Origin: Escherichia coli
GTDB lineage: Bacteria > Pseudomonadota > Gammaproteobacteria > Enterobacterales > Enterobacteriaceae
Assembly: GCF_003334765.1 (NCBI RefSeq)
Contig: NZ_QOWT01000029.1
Strand: one strand, 5' to 3'
DNA length: 51,807 nt
Below, piece by piece: positions 7,773 to 51,807 of the stretch. Within the stretch, counting starts at the first letter, position 1, and each line of letters starts with the position of its first letter. The translations under genes were made by a program, and so were the position numbers. The notes beneath the pieces were generated by a model. It saw only the letters and a program-made list of their open reading frames with translations, was not told the DNA's origin and searched no databases.

Positions 7773-9710
7773 TCAGTAACGACGTCCCCATTCCGTGGCG
7801 CTCATCAACGTCGGTTTATCCCCCATGAAATAGCGGTAGTAAGCGTCATAAGCCAGCACGTTCTTCACATAACCGCGCGTCTCGGAGAACGGAATACTCT
7901 CGACAAATGCCACAGCGTCGATACGCCCGGCGCTGTTGCCAAGCCAGGTTCGCACCCGTCCAGGTCCGGCGTTATAAGCTGCTGAGGAGAAAATACGGTT
8001 ATTGCCAAACTGCTGATAAACATATTGCAGGTAACTGGTGCCAATGTTGATGTTCGTTTCCGGATCCAGCAATTGCCCAGGGCTGCTATAACTAGGAATA
8101 GAGAACATCTTCACCGTATGGGTCGCTGTACCAGGCATAATCTGCATCAGGCCGCTGGCCCCTACCGGTGATTTCACTTTCGGATTCCAGGCGCTCTCCT
8201 GACGGGCAATCGCCATCGCATAGCTTTGCGGGATCTCTTTCCCACTGGTGTAACGTTTGAAAAGATCGTTGTAAGCCAGCGGGAATCGCTCTTCCAGATG
8301 ATCCCAAAGCTTCCCGGCGATCGTTGCCTGAACGCTAAGATCCCACCATTGGTTATTGAAAGCATACCGAGCCAGTTGAGCCTGCTCTGTTTTTGACTTG
8401 CTCTTCACCAGATTGGCCCACTCGCTACGCGCGGTGTTATCGAGATTCCAGTACATCAACTCGCGCACGCGCGCCATCTCCGGCCCCTGAGTCAGGGCGC
8501 TGTCAACATTCTGCGGCGCTTTATCAATCTTCAGCTCATACTCTTCTCCGATGCGTTGTGCTGCAACCATCGGGTAGAAACCACGCTGTTGCATGAGTTG
8601 ATGCAAAATCTCTTTTGCTTCAGCTTCACGTCCGCGTTCCAGCAATAAATCCGCCTGCCAGTAACGCCATTCATCTTTCTCTTTTGCTTCCATCGGCAGA
8701 CGCGCCAGCCAGGTATTCAGGCCGCGACGATCGCCGGTGCCAAGTGCCATTCGCACACGGCGTTCAATCAACGACGTGGATTGCGAGCGCATAATGGCGT
8801 CATCGCGCCATTTCGCCTGCTCGTCGGTGACATCGTTGCCCATCAAACGCCAGGCGACGATATCGCGCAGCTCCTGAATCTGATCTTCATTAAGCTGCTG
8901 CGCCTGGGCAAGCGACGGGATCATCAGCCGTGCATTTTCAGCATCCTGCCGCGCCACACTGGCAAACGCCACCGCTGCCATTTGACGGGTAAAATCGGTC
9001 GCTCCGGTTGTACGCGCGAAGGTCAGTACCGTATTAGGGTTGTTCGCCAGTGAAATGATTGCCGAGGCGATAGTCTGGTAATCGGCAGGCATCTGCCCTG
9101 CCAGCACTGTTACCAGGCCAGTGTTACCCGCTTTCATCGCCAGACGGATACGCTCTAAATACGCCAGCGGATCTTGTTTACCTGACGCACGCCAGACGCT
9201 AAATAACTTGTCACAGGCGTTAGGCTGGCTCTTGCCGGTTAGCCACAGCTCTTTCGCCCCTTGCCAGGCTTCTTCACTCTGCCCGGTGTTCCATTTCGCA
9301 TAGTAGTAATTACATTGCGCTTCGGTAGTTCCGGGCTTTTCCGGGCTAAAGGCTAACAAGCCACGCCAGTCTTCACGCCGCGCCAGTTCATTGACGAAAC
9401 GAGATTGCAGCGTGCGAGCGGGAGGAAGCGTGGGGTTAGCGCGAACAAAGTTAGTGACCGTCACCGCCGGTTGATTCATCAGATCATCGGTGATCTGGCG
9501 GTATTCCAGGTAGGGATAAAGCGGATAATCCTTCAGTCTAGGCATCATTTGTTCGACCACATCCATCTGTCGATTATCCCAGGCCTGCTTGATTTGCGCG
9601 TAACGGCTACGCTGCTCATCCAGTGAGTCGGCTCGCGCCACGCTGCTGACCGTCAGCAGACAGACACCGGCAGCCAACAGCCGCCAGGTAACTTGTTTGG
9701 CTTTTTCCAC
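7773..9710 (-). CDS. slt: Soluble lytic murein transglycosylase Slt70
   Basis: ORF track 655 aa; start moved to GTG at 9710 to give 645 aa (MEKAKQVTWRLL... signal peptide); C-terminal lysozyme-like domain. Confidence 0.93.
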   Translation of the reverse strand: MEKAKQVTWRLLAAGVCLLTVSSVARADSLDEQRSRYAQIKQAWDNRQMDVVEQMMPRLKDYPLYPYLEYRQITDDLMNQPAVTVTNFVRANPTLPPARTLQSRFVNELARREDWRGLLAFSPEKPGTTEAQCNYYYAKWNTGQSEEAWQGAKELWLTGKSQPNACDKLFSVWRASGKQDPLAYLERIRLAMKAGNTGLVTVLAGQMPADYQTIASAIISLANNPNTVLTFARTTGATDFTRQMAAVAFASVARQDAENARLMIPSLAQAQQLNEDQIQELRDIVAWRLMGNDVTDEQAKWRDDAIMRSQSTSLIERRVRMALGTGDRRGLNTWLARLPMEAKEKDEWRYWQADLLLERGREAEAKEILHQLMQQRGFYPMVAAQRIGEEYELKIDKAPQNVDSALTQGPEMARVRELMYWNLDNTARSEWANLVKSKSKTEQAQLARYAFNNQWWDLSVQATIAGKLWDHLEERFPLAYNDLFKRYTSGKEIPQSYAMAIARQESAWNPKVKSPVGASGLMQIMPGTATHTVKMFSIPSYSSPGQLLDPETNINIGTSYLQYVYQQFGNNRIFSSAAYNAGPGRVRTWLGNSAGRIDAVAFVESIPFSETRGYVKNVLAYDAYYRYFMGDKPTLMSATEWGRRY

Positions 9711-9920
9711 AAGCGCATCCTCTAAGTGTAAATACATCAATGCAGCGTCATGCCGCGTAATAGATTTATGCTAACCAGTCATTGCCGTTTACGCCACGTT
9801 ACGGACACTTTTTTACTTTTACTGCGAAGGTAATCGACCAACTGGGATTAGGCGGGGAAAAAGGCTACACTTCGCCTTTGAAAACTCATCATCACGATAA
9901 ACATAGAGGCGAAGTCCAAC

Positions 9921-11588
9921 GTGGCTCAATTCGTTTATACCATGCATCGTGTCGGCAAAGTTGTTCCGCCGAAACGTCATATTTTGAAAAACATCTCTCT
10001 GAGTTTCTTCCCTGGGGCAAAAATTGGTGTCCTGGGTCTGAACGGCGCGGGTAAGTCTACCCTGCTGCGCATTATGGCGGGCATTGATAAAGACATCGAA
10101 GGTGAAGCACGTCCGCAGCCAGACATCAAGATTGGTTATCTGCCGCAGGAACCGCAGCTGAACCCGGAACACACCGTGCGTGAGTCCATTGAAGAAGCGG
10201 TTTCTGAAGTGGTTAACGCCCTGAAACGCCTGGATGAAGTGTATGCGCTGTACGCCGATCCGGATGCCGATTTTGACAAGCTGGCCGCTGAACAAGGCCG
10301 TCTGGAAGAGATCATTCAGGCTCACGACGGTCATAACCTGAACGTACAGCTGGAGCGTGCGGCGGATGCGCTGCGTCTGCCAGATTGGGACGCGAAAATC
10401 GCTAACCTCTCCGGTGGTGAGCGTCGTCGCGTGGCGTTGTGCCGCCTGCTGCTGGAAAAACCAGACATGCTGCTGCTCGACGAACCGACCAACCACCTGG
10501 ATGCCGAATCCGTGGCGTGGCTGGAACGCTTCCTGCACGACTTCGAAGGCACCGTGGTGGCGATTACTCACGACCGTTACTTCCTCGATAACGTTGCAGG
10601 CTGGATCCTCGAACTGGACCGCGGTGAAGGTATTCCGTGGGAAGGTAACTACTCCTCCTGGCTGGAGCAGAAAGATCAGCGTCTGGCGCAGGAAGCTTCA
10701 CAAGAAGCGGCGCGTCGTAAGTCGATCGAGAAAGAGCTGGAGTGGGTACGTCAGGGTACTAAAGGCCGTCAGTCGAAAGGTAAAGCACGTCTGGCACGTT
10801 TTGAAGAGCTGAACAGCACCGAATATCAGAAACGTAACGAAACCAACGAACTGTTTATTCCACCTGGACCGCGTCTGGGCGATAAAGTGCTGGAAGTCAG
10901 CAACCTGCGTAAATCCTACGGCGATCGCCTGCTGATTGATGACCTGAGCTTCTCGATCCCGAAAGGGGCGATCGTCGGGATCATCGGTCCGAACGGCGCG
11001 GGTAAATCGACCCTGTTCCGTATGATCTCCGGTCAGGAACAGCCGGACAGCGGCACCATCACTTTGGGTGAAACGGTGAAACTGGCATCGGTTGATCAGT
11101 TCCGTGACTCAATGGATAACAGCAAAACCGTTTGGGAAGAAGTTTCCGGCGGGCTGGATATTATGAAGATCGGCAACACCGAGATGCCAAGCCGCGCCTA
11201 CGTTGGCCGCTTTAACTTTAAAGGGGTTGATCAGGGTAAACGTGTTGGCGAACTTTCCGGTGGTGAGCGCGGTCGTCTGCATCTGGCGAAGCTGCTGCAG
11301 GTTGGCGGCAACATGCTGCTGCTCGACGAACCAACCAACGACCTGGATATCGAAACCCTGCGCGCGCTGGAAAACGCCCTGCTGGAGTTCCCGGGCTGTG
11401 CGATGGTTATCTCGCACGACCGTTGGTTCCTCGACCGTATCGCCACGCACATCCTGGACTACCAGGATGAAGGTAAAGTTGAGTTCTTCGAAGGTAACTT
11501 TACTGAGTACGAAGAGTACAAGAAACGCACGCTGGGCGCAGACGCACTGGAGCCGAAGCGTATCAAGTACAAGCGTATTGCGAAGTAA
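9921..11588 (+). CDS. ettA: Energy-dependent translational throttle ABC-F ATPase EttA
   Basis: 555-aa ORF with two ABC cassettes (two Walker A GxxGxGKST, two LSGGE signatures). Confidence 0.96.
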   Translation: MAQFVYTMHRVGKVVPPKRHILKNISLSFFPGAKIGVLGLNGAGKSTLLRIMAGIDKDIEGEARPQPDIKIGYLPQEPQLNPEHTVRESIEEAVSEVVNALKRLDEVYALYADPDADFDKLAAEQGRLEEIIQAHDGHNLNVQLERAADALRLPDWDAKIANLSGGERRRVALCRLLLEKPDMLLLDEPTNHLDAESVAWLERFLHDFEGTVVAITHDRYFLDNVAGWILELDRGEGIPWEGNYSSWLEQKDQRLAQEASQEAARRKSIEKELEWVRQGTKGRQSKGKARLARFEELNSTEYQKRNETNELFIPPGPRLGDKVLEVSNLRKSYGDRLLIDDLSFSIPKGAIVGIIGPNGAGKSTLFRMISGQEQPDSGTITLGETVKLASVDQFRDSMDNSKTVWEEVSGGLDIMKIGNTEMPSRAYVGRFNFKGVDQGKRVGELSGGERGRLHLAKLLQVGGNMLLLDEPTNDLDIETLRALENALLEFPGCAMVISHDRWFLDRIATHILDYQDEGKVEFFEGNFTEYEEYKKRTLGADALEPKRIKYKRIAK

Positions 11589-28044: not shown

Positions 28045-29634
28045 TTAATGCTCGCGGGTCTGGTGGAACTGAACGTCCGGATAACGTTCCTGCGCCAGAC
28101 GCAGGTTGACCATGCTGGTAGCGATGTAAGCGAGGTTATCGCCGCCATCAAGCGCCAGTTGGCTTTCGTTCTTACGCTTGAACTCTTCGAATTTCTTCGC
28201 GTCCGCACATTCTACCCAGCGTGCAGTGGCAACGTTGACTGACTCATACACTGCTTCAACGTTGTATTCGCTCTTCAGGCGCGCTACCACCACATCAAAC
28301 TGCAGCACACCAACTGCACCAACGATCAGGTCGTTGTTGGAGATCGGACGGAACACCTGCACTGCGCCCTCTTCGGAAAGCTGTACCAGCCCTTTGAGCA
28401 GCTGTTTTTGCTTCAGTGGATCTTTCAGGCGGATACGACGGAACAGTTCTGGTGCGAAGTTCGGAATACCGGTGAACTTCATCATCTCACCCTGGGTAAA
28501 GGTGTCGCCGATCTGAATGGTGCCGTGGTTGTGCAGGCCGAGGATATCTCCCGGATACGCTTCTTCAACGTGCGAACGGTCGCCCGCCATAAAGGTCAGC
28601 GCGTCGGAGATCACCACATCTTTCGCGGTGCGCACCTGGCGCAGTTTCATGCCTTTTTCATATTTACCGGATACCACGCGCATAAACGCCACGCGGTCAC
28701 GGTGTTTCGGGTCCATGTTGGCCTGAATTTTAAATACGAAGCCGGTAAATTTGTCTTCGCTCGCTTCTACGGTACGGGTATCAGTCTGACGCGGCATCGG
28801 CGCAGGTGCCCACTCCACCAGACCATCCAGCATATGATCGACGCCGAAGTTACCCAGCGCAGTACCAAAGAATACCGGAGTGATTTCGCCCGCAAGGAAC
28901 AATTCTTTGTCGAACTCGTTAGACGCGCCTTTCACCAGCTCCAGTTCATCACGCAGCTGCTGCGCCAGATCTTCACCAACCGCAGCGTCGAGATCCGGGT
29001 TATTCAGCCCTTTAACAATACGGACTTCCTGAATGGTGTGGCCTTTACCGCTCTGATAAAGATAGGTTTCATCTTTATAAAGGTGGTAAACGCCTTTAAA
29101 CAGCTTGCCGCAGCCAATCGGCCAGGTGATCGGTGCGCAGCCGATTTTCAGCTCGTTCTCAACTTCATCGAGCAGTTCCATCGGGTCGCGGATATCACGG
29201 TCAAGTTTGTTCATAAAGGTGAGGATCGGCGTATCGCGCAGACGGGTAACTTCCATCAGCTTGCGGGTACGATCTTCAACACCTTTTGCGGCGTCGATAA
29301 CCATCAGGCAGCAGTCCACCGCCGTCAGGGTACGATAGGTATCTTCCGAGAAGTCTTCGTGCCCCGGGGTGTCGAGCAGGTTAACCAGGCAATCGTGATA
29401 CGGAAACTGCATCACAGACGTAGTAATGGAGATCCCACGCTGCTTTTCCATCTCCATCCAGTCCGACTTAGCGTGCTGGTTGGAACCACGGCCTTTTACT
29501 GTACCGGCGGTCTGAATGGCCTGTCCGAACAGCAGCACCTTCTCGGTGATGGTAGTCTTACCGGCGTCTGGGTGAGAAATAATGGCAAAAGTGCGGCGCT
29601 TCGCCACCTCTTGCAAATAAGGAGACAACGTCAT
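28045..29634 (-). CDS. prfC: Peptide chain release factor 3 (GTPase)
   Basis: ORF track 538 aa; start moved to [10 protein letters not shown] to give 529 aa; GTPase motifs [12 protein letters not shown] and DTPGH. Confidence 0.95.
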
Positions 29635-29724
29635 AATTCTTTCTTCTTGAGTAAGCGGCATCGCGCCGCGCTTGTTGAAAACGAAAAATTGCGGCTATTT
29701 TACCCATCAACGGGGGGGAGGCAA

Positions 29725-30402
29725 TCAGTGTTTACACAGGAGCTGCTCCAGTTCGTGCAACGAAGAAACGGTCCAGGTAGGCGCGATGCCTTCTGGTTGC
29801 TCGCGATTGTGCGCATTCAGCCAGCAGGTCGCAAGCCCGGCGTTGATGCCACCGAGAATATCGGACTCGGCAGTGTCGCCAACCATCAGCACGCGTGAAC
29901 GGTCAGGATTGCCCGCCTGTTCCAGCGCATAATCGAAAATTTTCTTATTCGGTTTGGCAACGCCAACTTCTTCGGAAATCACCAGCAAATCGAAATAATC
30001 ACGCAGGCCCGTGCGTTCCAGACGCACTTGCTGCAAGGCGCTAAAGCCGTTGGTGATGATGCCAATTTTAGCGTTGCCACGAATGGCGTTAAGCAGAGAA
30101 ACCGCGCCCGGCAGCGGCGTACAGATTTCCGCCATCGCATTAATAAAGGCTTCGTTGAGTTTACCCGGCTCGACGTTCAGCCGTTCGGCCCAGCTCTCAA
30201 ACCGCCCGTGCTGAAGCTGTAATGAAGTGATCGCGCCGTTTTGATAATCCACCCACAGTGGCTTGTTAACGGCCTGATAGTCCTGAAAATCTTCAGCGGT
30301 AAAGGTGACGCTGTAATCAAGAAACATCCGCTGCAGGCCGGTGAATGAGTCAAAGGTAAACAGCGTTTCATCGGCATCAAAGAAAATCCAGTCCCACTTC
30401 AT
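29725..30402 (-). CDS. yjjG: HAD-family pyrimidine 5'-nucleotidase YjjG
   Basis: 225-aa ORF with HAD motif I FFDADETL. Confidence 0.9.
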
Positions 30403-30416
30403 TATTCCACCTTGTC

Positions 30417-30863
30417 TTACATACTGATTGGCAACGCCATGATGATGGCGTCTTCGCGACCGTCCGTGGTGGGGTAGTAATTGCGGCGAATCGTCGCCTC
30501 GTTAAAGCCTAAACTTTCGTACAGTGCAATGGCGGCAGCGTTTGAGGCACGGACTTCCAGCCATAGCGTCGCCACGCCGCGTTTTTCCAGTTCGTCGATC
30601 AGATGTTCCAGCAGCGCCCTTCCCAATCCCTGACGCTGATAGTCAGGATCGACCGCAATATTGAACAATGTAGCTTCATCCAGCACCACTTGCGTAATCG
30701 CAAACGCCGCCATTTTGCCGTTTTGCGTTAACTGAAAGTTGAGATAACGCTCGCCCTGGTTGCTGGCAAAGGTTTTCTCACTCCACGGAAAGGCGTGGGC
30801 GCGTTGTTCAATGTGGTAAGCCGCTGGTAAATCAGTCGTTTCGAGGGAAGAAATCGTGTTCAT
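30417..30863 (-). CDS. rimI: Ribosomal protein S18 alanine N-acetyltransferase RimI
   Basis: 148-aa ORF with GNAT acetyl-CoA motif ([13 protein letters not shown]). Confidence 0.92.
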
Positions 30864-31245
30864 ATGTGCAAATTTGTTGCCATAACGCGGCGCGTGCCGT
30901 TGGGTTTGCCCGTAATTCGGTGAGCGCCGGTGATGCCACCTGAGCGCCTTCCAGTGATAGCGGTTCGTCAGTACCCAACCGCCAGCTGTTGCAGCGACTG
31001 CCTTGTGGCAGCATCGAGATTTTTTCTGGCGTCAGTTGCAGCACTTGATCGGGGCTGACGGTTAATGCGCGCAGAACATCGCTCACCAGAGGATCAGTCA
31101 GGGCGGGAAGATCGTTTGCCACCATCACCAGACGGACGTGTGCCGGGATCGCAATGGCAATCTCCCCCTGCAACGCGCCAGGGCGACGCAGCGACCACTG
31201 GGTAATGCCCAGTTGCTGTAACTGCCAGTCTCGTCGGGATGTCAT
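30832..31245 (-). CDS. holD: DNA polymerase III psi subunit HolD
   Basis: 137-aa ORF whose 3' end overlaps the rimI start. Confidence 0.9.
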   Translation of the reverse strand: MTSRRDWQLQQLGITQWSLRRPGALQGEIAIAIPAHVRLVMVANDLPALTDPLVSDVLRALTVSPDQVLQLTPEKISMLPQGSRCNSWRLGTDEPLSLEGAQVASPALTELRANPTARAALWQQICTYEHDFFPRND

Positions 31246-31347
31246 AGCGAATCGCTCCTGTTGTCAGGGGCGCAAATATAGCAAATTCGTCGATACCGCG
31301 CCAACATATGGCTATAATCGCCGCCAGTATCAATTGAGGAGCATTCC

Positions 31348-32379
31348 ATGTCTGCATTTACCCCGGCAAGTGAAGTCTTGCTGCGTCACAGTGATGATTT
31401 CGAACAAAGCCGTATTCTGTTTGCCGGAGACTTACAGGATGACCTGCCCGCGCGTTTAGATACCGCGGCCAGCCGTGCTCATACCCAGCAATTCCACCAT
31501 TGGCAGGTGTTAAGCCGCCAGATGGGGGATAACGCCCGTTTTAGTCTGGTCGCAACGGCAGATGACGTCGCAGATTGCGATACGCTGATCTACTACTGGC
31601 CGAAGAATAAACCGGAAGCCCAGTTCCAGTTGATGAATTTACTTTCTCTGCTGCCGGTGGGCACGGATATTTTTGTCGTTGGCGAGAACCGCAGCGGCGT
31701 GCGCAGCGCCGAACAGATGCTGGCAGATTATGCGCCGTTGAATAAAGTCGACAGCGCCCGTCGCTGCGGCCTCTATTTTGGTCGTCTGGAAAAACAGCCG
31801 GAATTTGATGCGGATAAATTCTGGGGCGAATATAACGTGGATGGCCTGACGGTCAAAACGCTGCCGGGCGTGTTTAGCCGCGACGGTCTGGATGTCGGTA
31901 GCCAGTTACTGCTCTCGACGTTAACTCCGCACACGAAAGGTAAAGTGCTGGATGTCGGCTGTGGCGCGGGCGTGCTTTCTGTTGCCTTTGCGCGCCATTC
32001 GCCGAAAATTCGTCTCACTCTGTGCGATGTCTCTGCGCCAGCGGTAGAAGCCAGCCGCGCAACACTTGCGGCCAACGGTGTTGAAGGTGAAGTCTTTGCC
32101 AGTAACGTCTTTTCCGAGGTGAAAGGTCGTTTTGATATGATCATCTCCAACCCGCCGTTCCACGATGGGATGCAAACCAGCCTCGATGCGGCGCAAACGC
32201 TGATTCGCGGCGCGGTGCGTCATCTTAATAGCGGCGGCGAGCTGCGAATTGTAGCGAACGCCTTCCTGCCTTATCCGGACGTGCTGGATGAGACATTTGG
32301 CTTCCACGAAGTGATCGCGCAAACCGGGCGCTTCAAGGTGTATCGCGCCATTATGACCCGCCAGGCGAAGAAAGGTTAA
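31348..32379 (+). CDS. rsmC: 16S rRNA (guanine1207-N2)-methyltransferase RsmC
   Basis: 343-aa ORF with SAM-binding motif [12 protein letters not shown] and NPPFH catalytic motif. Confidence 0.93.
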
Positions 32380-32509
32380 GTATCTGATATCTGTCGCCGC
32401 ATACCGTGTCGGATGCGGCGTACACGCCTTCTCTGACCGACAAACGAATTATCCACAATCCGCTGATGGACATTTTTCCAGCAATTACACCTCCGGCGAT
32501 AATTAACTA

Positions 32510-32537
32510 TTGACGAAAAGCTGAAAACCACTAGAAT
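32510..32537 (+). promoter_or_regulatory. Sigma-70 promoter of the tRNA-Leu gene
   Basis: -35 TTGACG, 16-bp spacer, -10 TAGAAT, about 40 bp upstream of the mature tRNA 5' end. Confidence 0.7.
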
Positions 32538-32578
32538 GCGCCTCCGTGGTAGCAATTCTTTTTAAGAATTGATGGTAT

Positions 32579-32665
32579 GCGAAGGTGGCGGAATTGGTAG
32601 ACGCGCTAGCTTCAGGTGTTAGTGTCCTTACGGACGTGGGGGTTCAAGTCCCCCCCCTCGCACCA
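32579..32665 (+). tRNA. leuV: tRNA-Leu (anticodon CAG)
   Basis: 87-nt sequence GCGAAGGTGGCGGAATTGGTAGACGCG...GGTTCAAGTCCCCCCCCTCGCACCA with anticodon loop CTTCAGGTG and encoded CCA; only one copy present. Confidence 0.95.
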
Positions 32666-32703
32666 ATTATCTTTACTTCCTTTCTTGTTTCTTCCCTGAT
32701 TTT

Positions 32704-47474: not shown

Positions 47475-49625
47475 ATGGATACTAAAAAGATATTCAAGCA
47501 CATACCCTGGGTGATTCTCGGAATCATCGGTGCATTCTGCCTCGCGGTAGTTGCATTACGTCGGGGGGAGCACGTCAGCGCCCTGTGGATCGTGGTCGCC
47601 TCTGTATCGGTGTATCTGGTGGCGTATCGCTACTACAGTCTGTACATCGCCCAGAAGGTGATGAAACTCGACCCCACGCGCGCGACGCCTGCGGTTATTA
47701 ACAACGACGGTCTGAACTACGTTCCGACCAACCGTTACGTGTTGTTTGGTCACCACTTCGCCGCTATCGCCGGTGCTGGTCCGCTGGTGGGTCCGGTTCT
47801 CGCCGCGCAGATGGGCTACCTGCCTGGCACGCTGTGGCTGCTGGCGGGGGTCGTGCTGGCCGGTGCGGTTCAGGACTTTATGGTGCTGTTTATCTCCTCT
47901 CGCCGTAATGGCGCATCTCTTGGTGAGATGATCAAAGAAGAGATGGGACCAGTACCGGGGACTATCGCGCTGTTTGGCTGTTTCTTAATCATGATCATCA
48001 TCCTCGCCGTCCTGGCGCTGATTGTGGTTAAAGCCCTGGCCGAAAGTCCGTGGGGTGTCTTCACCGTTTGCTCAACCGTACCGATTGCGCTGTTTATGGG
48101 TATCTACATGCGCTTTATTCGTCCGGGGCGTGTGGGTGAAGTCTCTGTCATTGGTATCGTGCTGCTGGTTGCCTCTATCTACTTCGGTGGCGTGATTGCT
48201 CACGATCCGTACTGGGGTCCGGCACTGACCTTTAAAGACACCACCATTACCTTCGCGCTGATTGGCTATGCGTTTGTTTCCGCACTGCTGCCGGTGTGGC
48301 TGATCCTCGCACCGCGCGACTATCTGGCAACCTTCCTGAAAATCGGCGTTATCGTCGGCCTGGCGCTGGGTATCGTGGTGCTGAACCCGGAACTGAAAAT
48401 GCCTGCCATGACCCAGTACATTGACGGTACTGGCCCGCTGTGGAAAGGCGCTCTGTTCCCGTTCCTGTTCATCACCATCGCCTGTGGTGCGGTATCTGGC
48501 TTCCACGCGCTGATCTCTTCCGGTACGACGCCAAAACTGCTGGCTAATGAAACCGACGCGCGTTTCATCGGCTACGGCGCAATGCTGATGGAGTCCTTCG
48601 TGGCGATTATGGCGCTGGTTGCTGCGTCCATCATCGAACCGGGTCTTTACTTCGCGATGAACACCCCGCCTGCTGGCCTTGGCATCACCATGCCTAACCT
48701 GCATGAAATGGGTGGCGAGAACGCGCCGATCATCATGGCGCAGCTGAAAGACGTTACCGCACACGCGGCAGCGACCGTCAGCTCCTGGGGCTTCGTGATT
48801 TCGCCAGAGCAGATCCTGCAAACCGCGAAAGACATTGGTGAGCCTTCTGTCCTGAACCGTGCAGGTGGTGCGCCGACGCTGGCGGTAGGTATCGCTCACG
48901 TGTTCCACAAAGTGCTGCCGATGGCTGACATGGGCTTCTGGTATCACTTCGGTATTCTGTTCGAAGCACTGTTCATCCTGACCGCGCTGGATGCGGGTAC
49001 CCGTTCTGGCCGCTTTATGCTGCAAGACCTGCTGGGTAACTTCATCCCGTTCCTGAAAAAAACCGACTCTCTGGTTGCCGGTATCATCGGTACTGCGGGC
49101 TGTGTGGGTCTGTGGGGCTACCTGCTGTATCAGGGCGTGGTCGATCCGCTGGGCGGCGTTAAGAGCCTGTGGCCGCTGTTCGGTATTTCCAACCAGATGC
49201 TGGCAGCCGTAGCGCTGGTACTGGGCACCGTTGTGCTGATTAAGATGAAGCGCACCCAATACATCTGGGTAACTGTTGTTCCGGCTGTATGGCTGCTTAT
49301 CTGCACCACCTGGGCGCTGGGCCTGAAACTGTTCAGCACCAACCCGCAGATGGAAGGCTTCTTCTACATGGCAAGCCAGTACAAAGAGAAGATTGCTAAC
49401 GGTACTGACCTGACGGCGCAGCAGATTGCCAACATGAACCACATCGTTGTGAACAACTACACCAACGCAGGTCTGAGTATTCTGTTCCTGATTGTGGTGT
49501 ACAGCATCATCTTCTACGGTTTCAAAACCTGGCTTGCGGTGCGTAACAGCGACAAACGTACTGACAAAGAAACACCGTACGTTCCAATCCCGGAAGGCGG
49601 CGTGAAGATCTCTTCGCACCACTAA
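47475..49625 (+). CDS. btsT: CstA-family pyruvate/H+ symporter BtsT (YjiY)
   Basis: ORF track 721 aa; start moved to MDTKKIFKHIPW to give 716 aa; polytopic membrane protein. Confidence 0.93.
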   Translation: MDTKKIFKHIPWVILGIIGAFCLAVVALRRGEHVSALWIVVASVSVYLVAYRYYSLYIAQKVMKLDPTRATPAVINNDGLNYVPTNRYVLFGHHFAAIAGAGPLVGPVLAAQMGYLPGTLWLLAGVVLAGAVQDFMVLFISSRRNGASLGEMIKEEMGPVPGTIALFGCFLIMIIILAVLALIVVKALAESPWGVFTVCSTVPIALFMGIYMRFIRPGRVGEVSVIGIVLLVASIYFGGVIAHDPYWGPALTFKDTTITFALIGYAFVSALLPVWLILAPRDYLATFLKIGVIVGLALGIVVLNPELKMPAMTQYIDGTGPLWKGALFPFLFITIACGAVSGFHALISSGTTPKLLANETDARFIGYGAMLMESFVAIMALVAASIIEPGLYFAMNTPPAGLGITMPNLHEMGGENAPIIMAQLKDVTAHAAATVSSWGFVISPEQILQTAKDIGEPSVLNRAGGAPTLAVGIAHVFHKVLPMADMGFWYHFGILFEALFILTALDAGTRSGRFMLQDLLGNFIPFLKKTDSLVAGIIGTAGCVGLWGYLLYQGVVDPLGGVKSLWPLFGISNQMLAAVALVLGTVVLIKMKRTQYIWVTVVPAVWLLICTTWALGLKLFSTNPQMEGFFYMASQYKEKIANGTDLTAQQIANMNHIVVNNYTNAGLSILFLIVVYSIIFYGFKTWLAVRNSDKRTDKETPYVPIPEGGVKISSHH

Positions 49626-49674
49626 CCGTGTTTAGCCCCGCTTCGGCGGGGCTTTGTTCTTATCAGAGTGAACT

Positions 49675-49878
49675 ATGTTTGGTAACTTAGGACAGGCAAA
49701 AAAATATCTCGGCCAGGCGGCGAAGATGTTGATTGGCATTCCAGACTACGACAACTACGTCGAGCATATGAAGACCAACCATCCCGACAAGCCGTACATG
49801 AGCTATGAAGAATTCTTCCGCGAACGCCAGAACGCACGCTACGGCGGCGATGGTAAAGGCGGTATGCGCTGTTGTTAA
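49675..49878 (+). CDS. yjiX: Small protein YjiX (DUF466/YbdD family), partner of the CstA-like transporter
   Basis: 67-aa ORF immediately downstream of btsT. Confidence 0.85.
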
Positions 49879-49888
49879 TGGAGAGAGC

Positions 49889-50845
49889 ATGAACCCGATT
49901 GCAGTTACCCTACTCACCGGTTTTTTAGGCGCGGGCAAAACCACCCTGCTGCGCCATATTCTTAACGAACAACACGGCTACAAGATTGCCGTGATTGAAA
50001 ACGAATTCGGCGAAGTCTCCGTTGATGATCAACTGATTGGCGACCGCGCCACGCAGATCAAAACGCTGACCAACGGCTGCATCTGCTGTTCGCGCTCCAA
50101 CGAGCTGGAAGACGCACTACTCGACCTGCTGGATAATCTCGACAAGGGCAATATTCAGTTCGACCGTCTGGTCATTGAATGCACCGGCATGGCCGATCCC
50201 GGCCCGATTATTCAGACCTTTTTCTCCCATGAGATTTTATGCCAGCGCTACCTGCTGGACGGCGTGATTGCGCTGGTGGATGCGGTACATGCCGATGAGC
50301 AGATGAACCAGTTCACCATCGCCCAGTCCCAGGTTGGCTACGCCGACCGTATTCTGCTGACGAAAACCGACGTCGCAGGCGAAGCAGAGAAACTGCGTGA
50401 ACGCCTGGCGCGCATCAACGCCCGCGCACCGGTCTACACCGTTACCCACGGCGATATCGACCTGGGCCTTCTGTTCAACACCAACGGTTTTATGCTGGAA
50501 GAAAACGTCGTCAGCACCAAACCGCGTTTCCACTTTATCGCGGACAAACAAAACGATATTTCGTCGATTGTGGTGGAACTGGATTACCCGGTAGATATCA
50601 GCGAAGTTTCCCGGGTGATGGAAAACCTGCTGCTGGAGTCGGCGGATAAACTACTGCGTTACAAAGGGATGCTATGGATTGACGGCGAACCTAACCGCCT
50701 GCTATTCCAGGGCGTCCAACGCCTCTACAGCGCCGACTGGGACCGCCCGTGGGGCGATGAAAAACCGCATAGCACGATGGTGTTTATCGGGATTCAGTTG
50801 CCGGAGGAAGAGATTCGGGCAGCGTTTGCGGGGTTGAGGAAGTAA
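49889..50845 (+). CDS. yjiA: COG0523 metal-chaperone GTPase YjiA
   Basis: ORF track 346 aa; start moved to MNPIAVTLLTGFLGAGKTT to give 318 aa; Walker A and CxCC metal motif GCICCS. Confidence 0.9.
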   Translation: MNPIAVTLLTGFLGAGKTTLLRHILNEQHGYKIAVIENEFGEVSVDDQLIGDRATQIKTLTNGCICCSRSNELEDALLDLLDNLDKGNIQFDRLVIECTGMADPGPIIQTFFSHEILCQRYLLDGVIALVDAVHADEQMNQFTIAQSQVGYADRILLTKTDVAGEAEKLRERLARINARAPVYTVTHGDIDLGLLFNTNGFMLEENVVSTKPRFHFIADKQNDISSIVVELDYPVDISEVSRVMENLLLESADKLLRYKGMLWIDGEPNRLLFQGVQRLYSADWDRPWGDEKPHSTMVFIGIQLPEEEIRAAFAGLRK

Positions 50846-50878
50846 TTTTGGATGATGGCCGCCATGTGGCGGCCTGAA

Positions 50879-51181
50879 TTATTTTTTGTTCTGATCGCGC
50901 AGCATCGCTTCACGTAAAATTGCGTTCAGGCGAGTTTGATAGCCTTTACCTGGTCGCTTCAACCATTCCATCACATCAGCATCAATACGCACCGAAGCCT
51001 GAGTTTTCAATGGCCGATAAAACTTACCGCGTTCGGCGTTAGACCATTGCTCATCGCTGGAAGGTGGGATATCACTGTAATCAATATCTTCGTCGGATTT
51101 ATTCGCCAGCGCCTTCAGTTCGGCCTCATGCTGCACATCGAGTGTAGAGGAGGTCCCTCGTTTATGTTTAACCATGCTCAT
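50879..51181 (-). CDS. brnA: BrnA-like antitoxin (DUF4415, ribbon-helix-helix-like)
   Basis: ORF track 147 aa; start moved to ATG at 51181 (MSMVKHKRG..., 100 aa), overlapping the upstream toxin stop by 14 nt; C-terminal GKGYQTRLNAILREAM motif. Confidence 0.75.
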   Translation of the reverse strand: MSMVKHKRGTSSTLDVQHEAELKALANKSDEDIDYSDIPPSSDEQWSNAERGKFYRPLKTQASVRIDADVMEWLKRPGKGYQTRLNAILREAMLRDQNKK

Positions 51182-51455
51182 AGCGATTCCTCTCTTTACG
51201 ATCTGCTTTTCGTGCACTGATGATTCGAATAATTTCATTTCCGCTTTCGAAACGGATGGTATGCGCAACCAGAATAACCACGATGCCGTAAACCAGGCCG
51301 ATTGTCTGCCAGCGATACTCACCGTTTTCTATGCGTTCTTGCTGTGACAAATGTTGTGGATCATCAAACAATAACACCGCATCTTCAAAGCGGATGCCAT
51401 GTTTCACCCGATTACTTTTGGCCTTGTTTTCATCCCATTCAAACTCCATTGGCAT
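51168..51455 (-). CDS. brnT: BrnT-like toxin (DUF497 family)
   Basis: ORF track 104 aa; start set at MPMEFEWDE with AGGGA 8 nt upstream; signature EFEWDENKAKSNRVKHGIRFEDAVLLFDDP; about 95 aa. Confidence 0.78.
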   Translation of the reverse strand: MPMEFEWDENKAKSNRVKHGIRFEDAVLLFDDPQHLSQQERIENGEYRWQTIGLVYGIVVILVAHTIRFESGNEIIRIISARKADRKERNRYEHG

Positions 51456-51638
51456 AATTGCCATCCCTAATTGTATATACAAAAATGTATCTACAATTAT
51501 TCTGCAATTATAGCGTTGATGTTGGAAATAGCATCACGTTTCGAATAATCAACCATGAAATTGACAATGAGTAAGTTGGACTTGATTCATCCAATAGAAT
51601 TTCTCGCCTGACATGGCACACTAAACACCTCGCTGTCG

Positions 51639-51807
51639 GGTAATGACTCCAACTTACTGATAGTGTTTTATGTTCAGATAATGCCCGATGACCTTGTCAT
51701 GCAGCTCCACCGATTTTGAGAACGACAGTGACTTCCGTCCCAGCCTTGCCAGATGTTGTCTCAGATTCAGATTATGTCGCTCAATGCGCTGAGTGTAACG
51801 CTTGCTG
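51639..51807 (-). mobile_element. insB: IS1-family insertion sequence, terminal inverted repeat and 3' end of insB, truncated by the window edge
   Basis: Begins with the IS1 terminal repeat GGTAATGACTCCAACTTACTGATAGTG; minus strand encodes the InsB C-terminus (…[44 protein letters not shown]); roughly 90% identical to canonical IS1 as I remember it. Confidence 0.85.

Follow-up and report, generated by a model that had tools for sequence, protein, structure and literature searches.

The window, by which we mean the whole 51,807-nucleotide stretch of Escherichia coli DNA that we analyzed, closes on a compact run of features: its last 1 kb contains, in order, the end of yjiA, a GC-rich hairpin, brnA, brnT, 183 bp of non-coding DNA, and one end of an IS1 element (Table 1). 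The type II toxin-antitoxin system BrnTA is known originally from Brucella abortus. The predicted system in the window shares with known BrnTA systems both Pfam domains (PF04365 and PF14384, in adjacent, co-oriented genes), the toxin-first gene order, and a 14-nt overlap of the two genes. A scan of the BrnT and BrnA proteins against NCBIfam gave no matching model, and an Rfam scan of positions 49500-51807 (E<=0.1) gave no RNA family.

The original prediction put IS1 about 180 bp upstream of the operon and drew attention to a minus-strand TATAAT at 51506-51511 and to a CAATTAT direct repeat in the DNA between. The spacing is right, at 183 bp from the RefSeq-annotated ATG at 51455, and the TATAAT motif exists, with coordinates that were one base off (51512-51507). 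The CAATTAT repeat is indeed there, at 51494-51500 and 51505-51511, within an 11-nt tandem repeat of TCTRCAATTAT (51490-51511). This region also contains a 32-bp palindrome with 14-nt arms (51468-51481 and 51486-51499, together 51468-51499). A fourth motif, ATAATTG at 51454-51460, overlaps the brnT start codon; in total ATAATTG/CAATTAT occurs four times between 51454 and 51511, two per orientation, spanning the -10. From their layout, these operator-like repeats may form a putative BrnA binding site. The minus-strand TATAAT was not called by our consensus promoter scan, and the -35, read by eye, matches at best 3/6; the TATAAT is a plausible candidate for the brnTA promoter, weak when taken alone.

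Closer to IS1, the flank contains the 11-mer AGTAAGTTGGA, the exact inverse of the core of the IS1 right-end repeat (51648-51658). There are two copies of this 11-mer in the window compared to 0.01 expected, and it is also found in the IS1-free genome Ecol_732; its significance becomes borderline once all IS1 11-mers are allowed. IS1 reportedly likes targets that resemble its own ends, and the inverse copy could reflect this liking or chance. We considered and rejected a degenerate, older IS1 end in the brnT flank: the score of a local alignment of the whole flank to the whole of IS1 was reached by 16/300 shuffles.

Table 1 Coordinates of the features discussed, in the window unless another locus is named.
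Feature	Coordinates	Strand	Basis or remark
GC-rich hairpin, terminator-like	50857..50874	.	between convergent yjiA and brnA
brnA, antitoxin, 100 aa	50879..51181	-	Pfam PF14384 (BrnA_antitoxin) 3.1e-17; RefSeq WP_000063156.1
brnT, type II toxin, 95 aa	51168..51455	-	Pfam PF04365 (BrnT_toxin) 4.7e-24; RefSeq WP_001297643.1
Putative brnTA promoter/operator	51454..51512	-	motif layout, function inferred
Retained part of former brnT/Mrr-type nuclease divergent intergenic region	51456..51638	.	alignment to IS1-free alleles
11-nt exact inverse of IS1 IRR core	51570..51580	+	in target flank; 58 bp from IS1 end
Left breakpoint, …TCGCTGTCG/G(GTAATG…)	51630..51639	.	alignment and blast against IS1-free alleles
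IS1F-type IS1, IRR end, 169 bp of 768-bp element	51639..51807	-	alignment to K-12 IS1A/IS1F
IS1 terminal inverted repeat IRR, GGTAATGACTCCAACTTACTGAT	51639..51661	.	1 mismatch (T>C, position 19) to IS1A IRR
yghX'-yghW'-mdtM chimera region	H10407 (L001) 9558-11032		just past window end; same annotated layout in L002, L009, L010
AF3 inverted IS1F copies	L012 4191-4958 and L015 about 9490-10300		

The IS1F element

The 3' end of the window is the right end of IS1; its inverted repeat begins with GGTAATGACTCCAACTTACTGATAG at 51639, and IS1 homology continues to the last base at 51807. Both claims made for this end from the sequence alone, that an IS1 end starts at 51639 and the element runs off the window and that several substitutions mark it as an isoform, are borne out. 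Using references that both come from the K-12 MG1655 record (NC_000913.3), we found 13 mismatches (92.3% identity) and no indels between the 169-bp piece and IS1A, and only 2/169 mismatches to IS1F; the isoform is IS1F. This piece includes the 3' end of insB; the transposase genes are on the minus strand and point toward brnT.

The window itself carries only this one end, and we describe the rest of the element and its right side from matching genomes. Many complete genomes match the window tail (50850-51807) at 100%, among them H10407 (an ETEC strain), SE15, and 300709; a further genome, HSP425, matches positions 8000-30000 of the window at 100% and has the same annotated layout. The 169-bp piece itself is identical to positions 8790-8958 of the H10407 locus (L001), where the complete element occupies 8790-9557. 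It is 768 bp long and bounded by imperfect terminal inverted repeats of ~23 bp (GGTRATG…), with IRR GGTAATGACTCC… and IRL GGTAATGCTGCC…. Looking for the second IS1 end thus yielded a full-length element, and no fragment.

Over its whole length the H10407 copy has 70 ungapped differences to IS1A (90.9% identity) and 5 to K-12 IS1F (99.3%), and the IS1F copy at the junction is 99.2-99.7% identical to other chromosomal copies. In our counts, K-12 IS1F has 73 mismatches to IS1A and the copy at the island has 70; the published figure for IS1F is 73 mismatches relative to the IS1A/E consensus (PMC12428005). The insA gene is intact and the A6C -1 frameshift site (CTTAAAAAAC) is present. The insB frame is readable and is interrupted by a TAG stop, a TGG>TAG change immediately before the conserved MTDGW (TDGW motif) that would fall at window position 51865, past the window end. 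RefSeq labels this insB copy a pseudogene ('programmed frameshift; internal stop') and already marks the IS1 pseudogene in >1000 genomes. The element is a full-length, transposase-dead IS1F.

The closest known relative is the K-12 IS1F beside fecIR, the type IV IS1 of PMC12428005, which is likewise 768 bp long, is 99.3% identical to the present copy, has the same insB stop, and is ~91% identical to IS1A/IS1E. In laboratory assays this K-12 element shows very little transposition, if any (PMC12428005). The present copy differs in that it lies at another chromosomal site, has no flanking duplication and sits at a deletion breakpoint, and has a counterpart with an intact insB in isolate AF3. The K-12 copy (L013 973-1740) carries the identical insB TGG>TAG stop at a different locus. 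The shared TAG stop is compatible with transposase supplied in trans, with spread of the stop by gene conversion, or with AF3 having regained the TGG; if the stop is older than the rearrangements described below, transposase would have been needed in trans.

Farther upstream, around window positions ~29570-32666, synteny with H10407 (L008) stops upstream of 29570. At the matching place H10407 has an integrase gene, the defence gene Dsr1, and a prophage beside yjjG; in the window, the core genes prfC, yjjI, radA, ettA, and sltY lie upstream of 29570.

The left junction and the island genes

The left junction, …CTCGCTGTCG/GGTAATG… (the slash marks the breakpoint), is present in 1112/5426 complete E. 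coli genomes, as counted with a junction-centered query consisting of 139 bp of flank and 169 bp of IS1. We discarded an earlier count of 1774 genomes, obtained with a window-tail query, because the non-IS part alone gives >80% coverage and the query does not discriminate; junction-centered queries were used instead. The brnT flank is present in 2003 genomes (2005 places), at full length in 1770, and all but one of the 2005 places are chromosomal.

There is no 8-9 bp target-site duplication: the nine bases on the left are TCGCTGTCG and those on the right, in the H10407 copy, are CGGATTCCA. An element located on a deletion breakpoint would be expected to lack one, and this tells us about the past of this copy rather than about the family to which it belongs. 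The absence of a duplication, together with the identical junction in 1112 genomes, H10407 and SE15 among them, contradicts the original view of a simple or recent accessory insertion.

Comparison with genomes lacking IS1 reveals what the element replaced. Ecol_732 and SCU-113 carry brnTA and the same flank without IS1; they align to the window with 97-98% identity, and homology stops at exactly 51638. Past the breakpoint, the IS1-free alleles read TTAAGGGATTACCGTG… into a 388-aa gene whose GTG start lies 14 bp away and whose product is an Mrr_cat nuclease that matches the PADLOC family PDC-S02. The order after this Mrr-type nuclease gene is type I hsdM, hsdS, and hsdR, then symE, yjiS, yjiR, the Rpn nuclease gene rpnD, and mdtM. 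The nuclease, the type I restriction-modification genes, symE, yjiS, yjiR, and rpnD are all missing from the IS1 allele. The DNA that should be contiguous with the flank is absent and the breakpoint coincides exactly with the IS terminus, as in adjacent deletions. The suggestion that a rearrangement in the restriction island might have its breakpoint here thus proved correct, given that the island genes continue from the first base of IS1 in IS1-free genomes and are missing here. Judged from these alignments, IS1 stands at the edge of a fixed deletion that removed ~11.3 kb and left the immigration control region (ICR) empty. There are ~660 genomes in which brnTA and the full upstream flank lie in the same place beside yjiA without IS1.

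Two promoter-like sites on the plus strand of the retained DNA, at 51458-51486 and 51522-51549, point rightward. Where IS1 is absent, these sites would be directed at the Mrr-type nuclease gene; in the window they are orphaned and aim into IS1, antisense to insB.

On the brnTA side, all 183 bp between brnT and the breakpoint are retained, including the repeats and the TATAAT, with 3-6 differences to the IS1-free alleles over 199 aligned columns. With the promoter region intact, no large change in brnTA expression is expected. Weak read-through from IS1 transcription toward brnT is conceivable, and we saw no sign of a new promoter in the sequence; an effect of IS1 on brnTA expression is unsupported either way.

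The allele is shared across lineages. Over the 16,958 bp of this locus from lgoR to kptA, H10407 and SE15, which we take to belong to phylogroups A and B2, respectively, differ at only 12 positions. In the mdtM region, the H10407/SE15 allele is 94.4% identical to Ecol_732. The near-identity of the two loci fits horizontal spread of the allele by recombination, in a region known to be recombination-prone and polymorphic (review PMC12707154).

Right-hand arrangements at the shared junction

Using a 1.4-kb query that spans the whole structure, we told apart three right-hand variants that share the one left junction: the yghX-yghW/mdtM type found in the window (variant a), a simple deletion (variant b), and an IS1-mediated inversion (variant c). 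The IRL terminus abuts different DNA in these lineages, namely yghX'-yghW', a point 260 bp upstream of mdtM, or inverted yjiC.

Variant b is the simplest. Here, for example in EC0900, IS1 is followed by the last 260 bp upstream of mdtM, which amounts to a clean 11,270-bp deletion relative to Ecol_732. It is found in ~358 genomes, a number obtained by subtraction (1021 minus 663).

Variant a, defined by its IS1/yghX' junction, is found in 663 complete genomes, including H10407, SE15, 300709, and HSP425. The 768-bp IS1 is followed by CGGATTCCAT… (yghX') and then by yghW'-'mdtM; the ~270 bp after IS1 comprise 97 bp from the 3' end of yghX, the spacer between yghX and yghW, and the opening codons of yghW. 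Almost all E. coli genomes have the same ~270-bp sequence elsewhere. Because IMT16316, which matches the window at 100% over the brnT flank, retains an intact native yghX-yghW locus, the fragment beside IS1 is a duplicate. The join between yghW and mdtM falls inside a 7-nt microhomology, CATGCCG, common to all three sequences compared. It is in frame (MNNHFGKGLMAGLKATHA/ATLFFPMAL…) and fuses yghW codons 1-16 to mdtM in a 419-aa chimera, which RefSeq labels as plain mdtM with an internal Met start.

Isolate AF3 represents variant c: a segment of ~13 kb from mdtM to yjiC' is inverted and lies between two IS1F copies in opposite orientation, each of which has an intact insB. Each end of the inverted segment carries one half of yjiC, and brnT is frameshifted. 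By its layout, the AF3 arrangement is a textbook product of replicative intramolecular transposition starting from the arrangement of variant b and shows that the element at the island site has been active. In the literature, we found no paper on the yghW'-'mdtM chimera and none on the present ICR allele.

Origin and significance of the restriction-less allele

Promotion of adjacent deletions and inversions through intramolecular replicative transposition is classical IS1 genetics. We think it likely that an IS1-promoted deletion emptied the ICR and that the IS1F in which the window ends is its fixed scar. An initial event, insertion or another, would have placed IS1F 14 bp upstream of the nuclease gene, after which several independent intramolecular transposition events at the IRL end of the element would have given rise to the adjacent deletions and the inversion. 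Events of this kind preserve a single IS copy with exact termini and create no duplication. The restriction-less allele, with brnTA as the sole cargo between yjiA and mdtM, would finally have spread among lineages by homologous recombination. We rank adjacent deletion and inversion first because the breakpoints are exact IS termini in every case, there is no duplication, and several IRL events proceed from a fixed IRR junction.

The presumed intermediate, in which an intact ICR would still stand next to an IS1 that occupies the left site and is flanked by a 9-bp duplication, is absent among the 5426 genomes, and we therefore infer the order of events from its products. A synthetic query joining the IS1 end, the 9-bp duplication, and the nuclease gene had one match, an independent insertion in Ec-91 that narrowly misses the site, where IS1 lies ~200 bp farther from the nuclease sequence than in the query.

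The same signatures (exact termini, no duplication, and a single copy) are also predicted if homologous recombination between two direct-repeat IS1F copies, one upstream of brnT and the other upstream of mdtM or in the displaced yghX fragment, deleted the island, with a single hybrid IS1 that lacks a target duplication remaining in place. E. coli chromosomes contain many IS1F copies, and the broken transposase of the element favors a RecA route. We nevertheless consider this explanation unlikely: neither parental single insertion (the left site with the ICR, or the native yghX breakpoint) occurs in the 5426 genomes, three right partners at one left junction would require three separate second insertions, and the AF3 inversion, with its duplicated, inverted IS copies and split yjiC, has the form that replicative intramolecular transposition classically produces. 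The AF3 inversion and the absence of double-IS parents lend indirect support to the IS transposase, as opposed to host recombination, as the probable catalyst of the deletion.

A recent, simple insertion of IS1 upstream of brnTA that changed toxin-antitoxin expression, through a hybrid promoter or read-through, is highly improbable. The transposase genes are indeed transcribed in the direction of brnT, and IS1 ends are said to be able to supply -35 elements and create hybrid promoters. However, 126 bp separate the IS1 end from the only good -10 downstream of it, too great a distance for a hybrid promoter; the repeats and the -10 are unchanged compared to the IS1-free alleles; and such an insertion would account neither for the missing duplication and the loss of ~11.3 kb of neighboring DNA nor for an identical junction in 1112 genomes. 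Least credible of all is that IS1 and brnTA entered the island as a mobile cassette, an IS1-associated toxin-antitoxin module: their adjacency is kept in all 1112 genomes, but ~660 others have brnTA with its full flank in the same place beside yjiA and no IS1, there is a single IS1 rather than two copies bracketing a cargo, with no IS1 end on the yjiA side (none between yjiA and brnA), the brnT flank is chromosomal in all but one of its 2005 places, and we saw no case of brnTA with IS1 and a target duplication at unrelated loci or on plasmids.

Returning to deletion promoted by IS1, the alleles described here share with known adjacent deletions and inversions the retention of one IS copy, breakpoints at the IS terminus, the lack of a duplication, repeated use of the same end, and an inversion accompanied by two inverted copies; adjacent deletion is among the recorded IS1 outcomes (PMC4498929). 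Unlike laboratory IS1 deletion mutants, the present alleles are natural, fixed, and widespread. Variant a also departs from a single adjacent deletion, which is insufficient to explain it given the ectopic 270-bp fragment from 1.4 Mb away and the microhomology join. The CATGCCG join would have arisen by illegitimate recombination, for example through a transient tandem duplication of ~1.4 Mb (yghW to mdtM, in K-12 coordinates); alternatively, a captured second copy of the chromosome or an incoming fragment may have supplied the partner. The IS1 end would then have attacked the duplicated yghX, deleting the extra copy together with the ICR while the native yghX-yghW locus was kept.

We considered two other origins for the fragment and rejected both. 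One-ended (pseudo-end) transposition of IS1 with the 270 bp fits poorly with a yghW/mdtM join that lies in a 7-nt microhomology and, as we read it, has no likeness to an IS1 end, which is why we prefer illegitimate recombination. Transfer of the yghX flank by IS1 from a resident insertion is unsupported: a search for IS1 at the yghX breakpoint of the native locus gave only a near miss, in STK78-E, with IS1 ~60 bp away.

We put forward a more specific reading of variant a only tentatively. The scar in these 663 genomes would record a transient tandem duplication of ~1.4 Mb in which yghW codon 18 was joined to mdtM codon 9 through the 7-nt microhomology, with the IS1 end deleting back into the duplicated yghX. 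MdtM, a multidrug and bile-salt efflux pump, would as a result now be made from the promoter, ribosome-binding site, and first 16 codons of yghW, in an allele without restriction genes.

Natural ICRs without restriction genes have been described before. That of E. coli C has been called 'empty' (Sibley & Raleigh 2004, as cited in PMC12707154), and those of E. coli W and Crooks are restriction-less, with the loss in Crooks put down to IS elements (PMC3032704). Like these, the present allele is a natural form of the yjiA-to-yjiN/mdtM island without hsd, mcrBC, and mrr. The island in the E. coli C genome that we inspected (L018 23502-29000) still contains yjiS, yjiR, and rpn, along with a DUF262 (GmrSD-like) gene and an hsdR fragment; brnTA and IS1 are both absent. 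In contrast, the present allele has lost the framework genes as well, and brnTA and IS1 alone are left.

Both the IS1F element and IS1-promoted deletion in a variable island are already established; the chimera and the ICR allele, as we read them from genome comparisons, add modest detail to known biology and represent no new kind of system. For annotation, these findings mean that the IS1 at this site is neither a fresh insertion nor a regulator of brnTA; it marks a common ICR allele without restriction genes, carried by ~20% of complete E. coli genomes. The allele is useful for predicting restriction phenotypes, for explaining why short-read assemblies tend to break here, and for studying recombination in a polymorphic region. 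The in-frame yghW'-'mdtM fusion in 663 genomes may matter to studies of efflux-pump expression and, if it changes the expression of mdtM, could explain the spread of variant a across E. coli lineages.
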